In this document: piece by piece, positions 9,001-13,865 of the stretch
How the letters are laid out: each line of letters opens with the position of its first letter
How positions within the stretch are numbered: position 1 is the stretch's first letter
Virus genome (UHGV): UHGV-0099111
Direction: 5' to 3' (one strand)
Length of the DNA stretch: 13,865 bases
DNA from: a virus
Position numbers: made by a program

Positions 9001-12000
9001 CCGAATGGGTAACCAAATGGGATGCTGCTGAAAACACGCAGGTAGAAGCCGTCAAAGGTGGTCGTTCCGGTGCAATGAAGCGCGCTGCCGTTCAGTGGGG
9101 AATCGGTCGGTATCTGTATAACCTTGAGGAAGGTTTCGCACAAACATCTCTCGATAAAAAGCAGGGGTGGCACAGGGCAAAACTGAAGGATGGAACAGGA
9201 TTTTACTGGCTCCCTCCATCGCTGCCGGGATGGGCAATCCCAGCATCAGATAAAAAACCATCACCAGAAAATACCAACCAGAAATCTCCATCGGTTGACT
9301 GCGAACAAATCCTGAAAGACTTCAGCGATTATGCATCAACAGAAACTGACAAGAAAAAACTCATCGAGCGTTATCAGCGTGACTGGCAATTAATGGCTGG
9401 CAACGAGGAGGCGCAGGCTAAATGCGTTCAGGTAATGAACATCAGAGTTAACGAACTAAAACAGGCGGCATAAATGGGAAGTAGAGGCGTAAATAAGGTG
9501 ATTATCCTTGGTCGGGTAGGACAAGACCCGGAAGTTCGATACTCACCATCAGGAACAGCGTTCGCTAACCTGACAATAGCAACGTCAGAACAATGGCGAG
9601 ATAAAAATACTGGCGAGCAAAAGGAATTGACTGAATGGCATCGTGTTGCTGTATCCGGGAAACTGGCTGAGGTCGTGGGGCAGTATGTGAAAAAAGGTGA
9701 TCAGATTTATTTCGAGGGAATGCTGAGAACCAGAAAGTGGAAAGACCAGTCAGGGCAAGACCGTTACACAACCGAGGTTCATGTCGGAATTAATGGCGTG
9801 ATGCAAATGCTTGGCGGCATTGGCGACAGCAAACAACAAGCAGCCAGCAGGCAATCACAGAAGCCACAGCAGCAATCATCACCAGCACAACACAACGAAC
9901 CTCCGATGGATTTTGACGACGATATACCCTTTGCACCAGTAACTCTCCCCTTCCCTCGTCACGCTATTCACGCAATTTAATCAGGAGAAAATCATGCCAG
10001 CGCCTCAGTATGGTGCAGATGACCCGCGCCGCTGTTCCGGCAATTCCGTATTGGAGGTGCTGGATAAATTCAGAAAAAACTACGACCAGATAATGTCTCT
10101 ACCGCAGGAAACGAAAGATGAAAAGGAATTTCGCCATTGTATATGGCTTGCAGAGAAAGAAGAACGCGAGCGAATTTACCAGACATCAATCCGACCATTC
10201 CGCAAAGCCACATATACCCACTTCCCTGAATATATCGACCCTCGCCTGCGTAATTACCGCTCACGCTATGGCGCTATCAGTAATGACTGAGGAATTTACC
10301 ATGAGAGGACTTGCATACAATCCCGGCATTCTTCCGGCAGAAATGATTATTCGCCAACGCGTAAAGCCAATGCCATCGAGAGAGGAATTGCTTAAGAGAA
10401 ATAGTTTCGGTTCTGTTAACGACAACAAATATCTGAATGCGATGTGGCGCAAAGGAGGCAACCAGTGAGCAAGATTGACTATCAGGTACTGCGTGAGGCA
10501 GCAGTAGCAATTGAAACAGTAGCAACGCCTCAAAAATTGCTGGCATTTCGTATGAAAGTAACACCTCAGGTTGTGCTGGCTCTACTGGATGAACGAGATG
10601 CATTAAATGAACGCCTAGCCGAACTGGAGGCTGATTTAGCAGGGCTGGCCGAAGACCACCAGAAAGCGACTGAGTCAATTAAGCAGGCTGATGCAGCTGT
10701 TAAGTTGGCACACGAGAAGTTTTCGGCGCTGGCGGCGGAGAATGCGATGTTGAAGCAACGGACACAGCAACTTATCGACATCATTAGTAATACTGACAAT
10801 GACTACTGCATGTGTGGTTCTGCTATGAAAGACCACGTGCACAGCGGATGTGGTTATCCTACTGGCATGTTCGATTATTACTACAACCAGTGGCTGGAGT
10901 CAGATAACAAAACCCCGGCCACCGATGCTTTTCTGGCTGAAGTGCGGGCGCAGGGTGTGGATTCAGCGATTAACACAGTCATTGCGATGATGAACCATCA
11001 GCATCCTGTCACATCGAAGGCAATCGACATAATGCGCGTCCATGCCTACCAAATTCGCAAAGGAGTGCAGTCATGAGAAAATCATACATCGTTATTCAGC
11101 AGTACTGGTGGTGCAACGAGAAAGGCCATGGAGTTGAATACACGACAGACGGCGTTGACTTCGATAAGCGCGATAAGGCCATCAAGCATGGATTCAAACA
11201 GCAAGGTAGCGATGATTTCAATATCGGCGTTATCGAAAATGAACGCCTAGTGTCATTCGACTGGATGAATAAGTCGATTGATGAAAGCGCAGAAAAACTT
11301 GCTGAAATTGCAGAAGCCATCGGTTACGAAGGAGCAGCCCAATGAGCAACATCAACAAACAGGCACTGCGTGAAGCGGCTGAGAAGGCCACTCCTGGCCG
11401 CGTCGGTGACCGTATCGACGGAAGCGGTAGCATCAAATACGAATGCCATGGTTATGATGGGTCTCTGGTCTTACGTACAGACCATAAAAACATGGAGTAC
11501 GGATTTATTGGTGATAACAGTAACGCCGATGAGCTGTTCTTCAGGTTGTGTGTGCCAGATGTAATTCTGGCACTGCTGGATGAACTGGAAGCCGCAGAGA
11601 AGCGGATTGCTGAGCTGGAAGCGAATAAGTGTAAGCCAGTGATGTTTATTGATGGCGATATATCGCCTGCTGACGCTGACAAGTTGGCTGCTGTAATTCG
11701 CGAGTTCAACGAAGAAACAGAAACCCCTGCGGCTCGAATGGCGCGGATTATTCGCGAGAACCCGCATCCAACTAACATGTGCGATATGCCAGCCGCTGGC
11801 ATCGGTAAGGGGGAGTGATGCTTCAACATCAAATGCAGCCAACATTTAACACCTGCATGGCTACCTGCGTTGCAATGGTTGCCGGTCAACCTGTCGATGA
11901 GGTAGTGGAACGCTGGCATCAGAAATTCCACGACAAAACAGACTGGCTCGACGACGCGCTGGATTATTACAAAATCCCGTATTTTTACGGAAGCCAGCGC

Positions 12001-13865
12001 AAGGCCGAATTGCTTTACGGGTTTATTTACTTCCTGACCGTTCCGTCACTGAACATCAAAGGCGGCCTGCATCAGATTCTGATGTCGTTAACGGCAGAAC
12101 GCGGCATAGAAGTATTTGACCCGGCAATGGGTCGGCCAGGATCAAAATATTACGTTTGGGGTGAAGCGCAGAACGATGATCAATTCGGCGTTATCTCCTG
12201 GTGCGTCGATTTATCGGTTCCGGTAGTGCAACAGAAAGGTGAGGACTAACCCATGAGCACTATTACCAAAGAACTGGCAAAACTGTTCAGAAAAATTACG
12301 AATTCTGAAATTGATGCGGAGGGTAACGCTCATGTTGTTTTATCTCCTGCTGATAGCCTCCTGATTAATAATGCGCGTATCGCGCTGGCATCGCTCGAAG
12401 CGGAGCCTGTGGCGTGGGCGCACAGATTAATCAACAAGCGTAACGGAGTCGTTCACCCTTGGGTTTACGGTAGCGCAGAGGCGTGTCCAAGCGAGGGGGA
12501 TATCTTCAATATTGAGGTAATGCCGCTCTACACCGCCCCTCCAGCGCCGGTAGCTGTGCCTGAGTGTTTCAAGCGCCTTCTCCACCATGCTTACGGCATG
12601 ACAATGGGGCATGACTGGAACAAAGGGACTATGGCTGGACATCACCGCGCCAAGCTGTGTCAGGCTGTTGATGAGTGCCGGGCAGCCATGCTTCAGGGTG
12701 CAGATGGTACCCTCACCAATGAAGGTACCATGCAGTTGTCCGGTAATTCCGAACAAATCGAACCCGTAAGTAATCGTGATGAGTTGCCGTTGGACTATCT
12801 GCAAGGTCACAAAGACGGCCTTGAATGGGCGGCGCAACTGGCAGAGGCTAATCATCCGCAAACAGGTGACTGGTTATACGACGACCCAATCGATCTTGCC
12901 AGGGCGATTCGCAAAGGTCCGGATATGCCTACTGTTCAGGCTGGCAACTCTCCGGTAACTCCGGATGGTTGGGTTATGGTGCCGAAGGAGCCAACTCAGG
13001 CCATGATTAAAGCGTGGCTATCAGAGATTGCTAACTTTCGCGGTCATGCTGCTGGTTACAGGGCTGCTCTTGAGGCAGCACCACAACTGGAGGTTAACCG
13101 TGGCTAACCTGCAACTTGCCGTCAAAGGTGAATAACAATCCTCGCATTCGCGGGGATTTCTTTTATCTGAACTCGCTACGGCGGGTTTTGTTTTATGGAG
13201 ATGATTATGGCCTGTTCAACATTCAACCCTCTAACGTTACAGAAATACCAGCCAGACCCTGAAGATTTATGCTCACTGTGTGGCGGAAATCATGGTAAAG
13301 CCGCCATGATCGAATGTAAGGACAAAATCCACATTTGCCTTAATTGCGTTGATGTCCTCGTTGATATCAAAAATGAGAGAGAAGATAAAAAGCGTAGCGA
13401 GGCTATTCGCGCATTAGATTCATGGATGCGAGATGGGTATAGTGCTGCGCAAATTTATGACTTCGCAATATCAAAAGGCGAAATACCAGGAGTGCGCATC
13501 GAATAAGACGTAACCAATATTCGAATTGAAGAACTGAAAGAACACCAAGCCGCCTGATGGCGGTTTTTTATTGCCTGATTTGCAGGTTCGATTCCATATT
13601 CGGAGATAGCACTCATGCAACACGAACTACAGCCTGATTCACTGGTTGATTTGAAATTCATCATGGCTGATACTGGCTTCGGTAAGACCTTCATCTATGA
13701 CAGGATTAAGTCCGGAGACCTGCCTAAAGCCAAAGTTATCCACGGGCGAGCAAGATGGTTATATCGTGATCATTGTGAATTCAAAAATAAGCTCTTAAGC
13801 CGCGCTAATGGGTAAAATAGCGGGTAAAATATTTCTCACATCTAAAAAATACCATTCCAATCAAT

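Follow-up and report, generated by a model that had tools for sequence, protein, structure and literature searches.

The 'ea' and 'nin' accessory regions of lambdoid and P22-like phages are rich in genes without an assigned function, and one such gene raises the question of whether a phage of this kind makes a cysteine peptidase early in its cycle and, if so, what that enzyme would act upon. The gene lies in a 13,865-nucleotide stretch of the virus genome UHGV-0099111 (hereafter the window), the DNA of which resembles P22-like and lambdoid phages (Sf6, Louie, Dewey and Stx phages), and it comes after erf/ssb/abc2 and before xis, within the early-left (PL) 'ea' accessory region of a P22-like prophage. 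A first-pass annotation of the window had read the open reading frame (ORF) at 11815-12249 on the plus strand as a possible papain-like peptidase of C39 type, and both peptides that it quoted in support, TCMATCVAMV and GGLHQILM, are present as given. Here we examined the conservation, homology, predicted fold and genomic setting of the encoded protein, and with a probability of roughly 0.6 we read it as a stand-alone, cytoplasmic and catalytically competent cysteine endopeptidase in the C39 branch of papain-like clan CA. To our knowledge, examples of early phage proteases directed at host proteins are few.

An invariant catalytic tetrad and homology to C39 peptidases

In a scan of PHROGs the protein was assigned to phrog_4049 ('unknown function') with an E value of 3e-52. 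Searching 1.84 billion cluster representatives with a profile, we recovered 856 relatives at E<=1e-3 (counted as family representatives at 50% clustering), with 533 of them at E<=1e-10, and nearly all of the 856 are stand-alone proteins of 135-170 amino acids (aa); close homologues of the peptidase numbered 32. Conservation was evaluated in an alignment of 123 relatives that share 24-60% identity with the query and average 21% identity per column, and exactly five columns were invariant in all 123 sequences. With residues numbered from the ATG at 11818 (adding one gives the GTG-based numbering of the first-pass annotation), these are Gln7, Cys13, His85, Asp101 and Pro102, all encoded on the plus strand. 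Cys13 (codon 11854-11856) is the predicted nucleophile, Gln7 (11836-11838) the predicted oxyanion-hole residue in a Q-x5-C arrangement, His85 (12070-12072, within GGLHQIL) the predicted general base, and Asp101, 16 residues after the His and followed by Pro102 (12118-12123), the predicted third catalytic residue. The Cys and His that had been put forward as catalytic candidates are therefore kept by diverse homologues, as are an oxyanion Gln and an Asp, and this conservation across 123 relatives excludes a chance motif. The proposed Q-x7 spacing did not hold, as the Gln supported by homology is Gln7 (Gln8 from the GTG), and the Gln two residues before it is conserved in only 84 of the 123 relatives.

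Other positions are characteristic of the family without being fixed. Its own motifs are VPSLN before the His and a YY pair, both near-invariant, along with [FYW]H in helix 2 and CxxxC. The second Cys of the last of these, Cys17 (11866-11868, plus strand), is kept in 110/123 relatives and is elsewhere Ser, Thr or Ala; it is not essential, and it possibly serves as a redox or regulatory partner. His34 is kept in 111/123. We also considered a Cys2His2 metal site formed by Cys13, Cys17, His34 and His85 and rejected it as an obligatory feature, since substitutions occur at Cys17 and His34 but at no position of the C39 tetrad, which makes an obligate metal site unlikely.

To place the family, the phage profile was compared using hhalign with a profile of LahT150-type C39 domains, from a reference alignment seeded on the LahT150 segment. 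The two matched with a probability of 91.8% (E 7.2e-7), in a register that pairs Gln7, Cys13, His85 and Asp101-Pro102 with Q21, C27, H101 and D117-P118 of LahT150, which are themselves invariant in the C39 set; Gln7 stands six residues before the Cys, as the oxyanion Gln does in C39 enzymes. When family members were scanned one by one, 28 of the 123 matched PF03412 (Peptidase_C39), one of them above the gathering score (27.9 versus 22 bits), and several others scored 19-21 bits over profile positions 3-114 of 133. The C39-type, papain-like reading of the first-pass annotation is thus supported both by the profile-profile register and by the one member above the Pfam C39 gathering score. On these comparisons the family appears to be a divergent, currently unmodelled branch of C39, as a remote member or a sister subfamily.

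Likewise, the structure predicted with AlphaFold from an alignment of 24 homologues (pLDDT 88, pTM 0.85) has the papain-like alpha+beta fold of ~130-150 residues expected for C39. Structure comparison of this model was led by PCAT1 (9.1), PeiR (8.8), the ComA peptidase domain (8.7), the LahT150 double-glycine protease (8.6) and the C39-like peptidase 3erv (8.4), with staphopains, Josephins, UfSP, AvrPphB, coronavirus PLpro and others as weaker matches below these, and Foldseek concurred in giving PCAT1 chains as the best matches. In the model, the first long helix (14-23 in the GTG numbering) has Cys13 at its N-terminus, His85 opens a beta-strand (85-93) and Asp101 follows the next strand, in the canonical C39 arrangement. 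Lack of a papain-like fold on prediction had been named beforehand as grounds for abandoning the C39 reading; instead the model is confident and C39 domains are its top structural matches. In BFVD, those close viral structural relatives that carry a name are all called 'Uncharacterized'.

We next compared the protein with characterised systems. The bacteriocin-processing (double-glycine) C39 domains of PCATs, which are peptidase-containing ABC transporters (PCAT1, ComA, LahT150; MEROPS C39, PF03412), have the same Gln/Cys/His/Asp-Pro pattern, but in that system the domain forms the N-terminal part of an ABC exporter that comes with cognate leader-peptide genes, whereas the phage protein is a 143-aa stand-alone product of an early module without a transporter, and no transporter gene was found in any of ~80 related loci. 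StbD-CT, a contact-dependent inhibition (CDI) toxin of Citrobacter rodentium (PDB 8ssm/8ssk), shares the layout of the two Cys residues (Cys183/Cys187) and the Gln-to-Cys spacing (Gln177/Cys183). This toxin has CdiA-like effector delivery, an entry domain, an immunity protein and proven GyrB/ParE substrates, with GyrB being cleaved at an HAGGK site (bioRxiv 10.64898/2026.05.07.723447). In contrast, the phage protein is a stand-alone ORF without a delivery domain and has no conserved downstream partner across lineages; furthermore, a sequence match to StbD-CT was absent and the phage family is not specifically nearer to it than to the PCAT C39 domains. The C58 peptidases (YopT/AvrPphB/PfhB2) have the clan CA fold and the Cys/His/Asp triad in common with the phage family, which reads SLNxxGGxH...DPxxG in the His/Asp region where PfhB2 reads SINLEGGSH...DPNFG. 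C39 and C58 are related clan CA families, and weak Pfam C58 matches in four family members are consistent with this. Finally, C39-like domains (CLD) of the HlyB type have lost the catalytic Cys and are inactive, whereas in the phage family Cys13 and the catalytic tetrad are invariant. The protein is therefore best filed as a remote, stand-alone, phage-specific C39 variant; it is neither part of a PCAT nor a toxin of the CDI type nor an inactive CLD.

Distribution and early-module placement across phages

Using tblastn against 50,697 phage records we found the family in 193 genomes of cultured phages, so that a peptidase among early accessory genes, which had been called unusual, is less so than supposed. 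Represented among them are Kuttervirus (Ackermannviridae), 145-150-kb myoviruses, Seurat-, CAjan- and 9g-like siphoviruses, ~39-40-kb Vibrio phages (VP2, H1, J3, JSF15) and phages of Pseudomonas, Erwinia, Providencia and Pantoea, a range that runs from T7-like Vibrio phages to the 157-kb Kuttervirus. The product is nearly always recorded as a 'hypothetical protein', the exception being Salmonella phage SeF6a, where it is labelled 'ABC-type bacteriocin transporter peptidase domain'. In E. coli the exact window gene is rare, occurring in 9 of 5,426 complete genomes, where it is annotated as hypothetical. On the chromosome of E. coli ABWA45 (NZ_CP022154.1) the 432-bp gene query matches seven separate places, against a median of one among genomes with a match; these may be several related prophages or partial copies.

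The genes surrounding the family were analysed in 80 IMG/VR loci, which were found with a 24-sequence alignment and in which neighbouring ORFs were clustered. In the loci examined, the family gene always lies in early replication, recombination, DNA-metabolism or accessory modules: between Ead/Ea22-like and EaA-like genes, after a DnaC-like loader and before NinB/NinG, after MuA/MuB-like genes, or after a helicase, and in a Serratia prophage it is found in the nin region following a 725-aa DNA methylase. The Ead/Ea22-like upstream neighbour varies between loci, and the EaA-like downstream neighbour is frequent in close relatives and not present in distant ones. In one locus (L002) the Ead/Ea22-like gene, the peptidase gene and the EaA-like gene are placed after replication genes, and the three may travel together. 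At the syntenic position phage Louie has a 144-aa ORF which is not a family member.

Two further settings were seen in particular lineages. In a Mu-like element (L050, L051) the family member follows directly after ORFs that were judged by eye to encode a 679-aa MuA-like transposase and a 314-aa MuB-like ATPase, a placement that would put it at the head of a Mu-type early accessory region. In six Seurat-like IMG/VR loci (L036, at 3290-3832, L037, L038, L064, L073 and L075), which fall in groups 3 and 4 and of which the group 4 contigs measure ~58-61 kb as in Seurat/9g-type phages, a gene for an HslV-family (proteasome-like) peptidase, phrog_1040, follows on its downstream side, directly or after one tiny ORF, which sets two predicted peptidases side by side.

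In Kuttervirus, the family gene is located between the genes for the large subunit (phrog_543) and the second subunit (phrog_551) of topoisomerase II, with 1 nucleotide from the upstream stop to its ATG and with its own stop overlapping the downstream start (ATGA). Examples are the members at 5986-6435 of an IMG/VR Kuttervirus-like contig (L042) and at 3405-3935 of the SeF6a locus (L088).

Proposed activity and competing explanations

We infer proteolytic activity, a cleavage-site preference and a host target as follows. Transcribed with the early-left (PL) operon, the protein would be made early after infection or induction and be silent in the lysogen. It has no pro-domain, signal peptide or transporter fusion, and it is therefore expected to be a working enzyme as soon as it is made, in the reducing cytoplasm. 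By homology, Cys13 at the N-terminus of the central helix would act as nucleophile, His85 would activate it, Asp101 would orient His85 and Gln7 would form the oxyanion hole. By analogy with C39 enzymes, the peptidase would probably cut a specific protein at a small-residue or Gly-Gly-type site. The likeliest substrate would be a conserved host protein, cleaved for host takeover or counter-defence; such a protein is the most economical target because the family is common to phages of Enterobacterales, Vibrio and Pseudomonas, temperate and virulent alike, while the phage genes beside it vary.

Several results weigh against assigning an endopeptidase with a host target. Scans of the window protein against Pfam and NCBIfam returned nothing above noise (RhaT, at E 0.15 and 0.003 and well short of the cutoff), and it lies below every Pfam threshold, with no PF03412 match even at E<=10. 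Neither the single protein nor the A1 profile matched any PDB sequence, and the A2 profile gave weak matches only (E>0.3). The catalytic arrangement was judged from secondary-structure positions in the model. Likewise, across the ~80 loci we found no universal partner, immunity gene or double-glycine-leader substrate, which makes the target a guess, and the literature searched yielded neither work on the family nor biochemistry for any member. Furthermore, the reactions of papain-like folds bearing a Cys/His/Asp triad extend to deamidation, transamidation, acyl transfer and the cleavage of isopeptide bonds.

It follows from this last point that the same fold and active site could serve another chemistry, with the protein acting as a deamidase, transglutaminase, acyltransferase or isopeptidase/deconjugase instead of as an endopeptidase on a folded host protein. 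A deconjugase might, for instance, strip off C-terminal Gly conjugates of the ubiquitin-like or cGAS type, as produced by Bil or by type II cyclic oligonucleotide-based antiphage signalling systems (CBASS). However, the best structural and sequence matches are to true C39 endopeptidases and the Gln-x5-Cys and His-x15-Asp-Pro spacings are those of C39; as for conjugates, the peptidase gene is early whereas Bil targets late tail proteins, and no link to Bil or CBASS was found in the literature. We consider this group of activities unlikely. The structural matches to PCAT1, ComA and LahT also recall the textbook C39 role in bacteriocin processing, and the phage enzyme could by the same token remove a double-glycine leader from a phage-encoded precursor or mature another phage protein. 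None-the-less, no ABC transporter is fused or adjacent, the neighbours differ wholly between phage lineages, and a leader-like N-terminus of the double-glycine type was present in 0 of 608 neighbouring ORFs compared with 3 of 1641 over all ORFs, and we hold precursor processing to be quite improbable.

Loss of catalysis, with the protein retained only for binding a partner as in the CLD of HlyB, is hard to reconcile with Gln, Cys, His and Asp being invariant in 123/123 relatives, which is difficult to explain unless they are used in catalysis, and we give it very little weight. A similarly slight chance attaches to a cell-wall hydrolase or lysis accessory, of which papain-fold peptidoglycan and pseudomurein peptidases offer a precedent: the phage protein has no signal peptide, transmembrane segment or cell-wall-binding domain, its catalytic Cys is already residue 13, and the gene occurs in early replication/recombination modules and never in lysis cassettes.

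A more specific version of the host-target proposal would make the family a host-takeover protease that, like StbD-CT, cuts the host GyrB/ParE ATPase subunits at the Gly-Gly of the HAGGK site. This weakly supported idea arises from the host-target argument together with the Kuttervirus gene order, in which the family gene is lodged between the phage's own topoisomerase II genes in translational linkage with both. The Kuttervirus large subunit reads YAGSNF where it was matched by eye, without an alignment, to the HAGGK loop of GyrB; the phage topoisomerase II would accordingly be spared and could take over from the host enzymes once these are destroyed. We give this hypothesis a low probability, because lambdoid phages require host gyrase and because StbD-CT is no nearer to the family than the C39 domains of PCATs are.

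Returning to a C39-like endopeptidase as the preferred reading, the present analysis defines a large stand-alone C39-like family whose members are mostly recorded as 'hypothetical', and the invariant tetrad provides a directly testable handle, namely four point mutants combined with a substrate search. Should the substrate be a host housekeeping or defence protein, this would represent a new mode of phage takeover or counter-defence, while a generic peptidase would still provide a useful correction to the annotation of PHROG 4049.

Start codon, operon and variant copies

The coding sequence most likely runs from the ATG at 11818 to the TAA at 12247-12249 on the plus strand (11818-12249, 143 aa). 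The upstream gene's TGA stop (11816-11818) overlaps this ATG (TGATG), an AAGGGG Shine-Dalgarno element lies 5 nucleotides 5' of it, and the first residues of homologues are ML/MI-xHQ (including ML/MI-QHQ), starting at the Met that matches it; stop overlap, Shine-Dalgarno spacing and homologue starts together make it the likely start in preference to the GTG at 11815-11817. The Shine-Dalgarno-like sequence, as read from the DNA, is AAGGGGGA at 11807-11814 (plus strand), within the 3' end of the upstream gene. The first-pass annotation thus had the correct frame and stop, with its GTG start, which would give 144 aa (11815-12249) and is probably not the real one, placed one codon 5' of the likelier ATG. 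The stop/start overlap at 11816-11818 suggests translational coupling with the upstream gene. Two minus-strand ORFs, at 11452-11931 (159 aa) and 11471-11845 (124 aa), run antisense to the Ead/Ea22-like gene and to the 5' part of the peptidase gene; we treated both as spurious non-coding shadows, by which naive longest-ORF calling was misled.

The plus-strand genes leading to the peptidase encode an N-like antiterminator (5195-5557), an Erf-like annealing protein (8766-9473), SSB (9474-9980), the anti-RecBCD protein Abc2 (9994-10290) and the first of two Ead/Ea22-like proteins (10444-11076). The second Ead/Ea22-like gene (11342-11818, plus strand; Pfam PF13935, E 1.7e-18) belongs to the same operon and is directly upstream of the peptidase gene; the two are paralogous coiled-coil genes, and between them lies a 90-aa ORF without an assigned function (phrog_26897, 11073-11345). 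Downstream, an EaA/DUF551-like gene (12253-13107, plus strand) starts 4 nucleotides after the peptidase stop and is followed on its 3' side by two tandem terminator-like hairpins (13137-13188). A 103-aa Cys-rich ORF without an assigned function (phrog_3680, 13195-13506) is bracketed by these two and a further terminator-like hairpin (13547-13566) that lies just 5' of xis, which encodes a 66-aa excisionase (13615-13815, plus strand). What had been termed an exo-xis region is therefore its functional equivalent, but as the recombinase is Erf and not Exo it is a P22-type erf/abc2-to-xis region and not a strict lambda exo-xis one.

A promoter-like site is present at 11006-11033, inside the upstream Ead/Ea22-like gene, and between this site and the hairpins at 13137-13188 we found no sigma-70-like promoter or terminator-like hairpin. 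Together with the tight packing of the genes, this indicates that the peptidase ORF is an internal gene of a packed operon. PADLOC defence models gave no match to the peptidase, and for its neighbours in the window they gave only weak coiled-coil noise (LmuB/DruC on the protein of 10444-11076).

Some family members are atypical in length or integrity. By eye, four of them look fused to other modules: P0164 to a MazG-like region at its N-terminus, P0082 and P0057 to Cys-rich, zinc-ribbon-like tails at the C-terminus, and P0169 to a coiled-coil extension, also C-terminal. Such fusions are either genuine or produced by gene calling. A frameshifted copy in a prophage-like viral contig (L034, 6001-6382) is probably pseudogenised, and P0024 from Raoultella planticola is a partial homologue of 99 aa. 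The first 67 residues of the 95-aa E. coli protein P0027 are 95% identical to the peptidase, and this protein also matches Pfam PF05322, which we take to be NinE, suggesting a mosaic recombination junction inside the peptidase gene.

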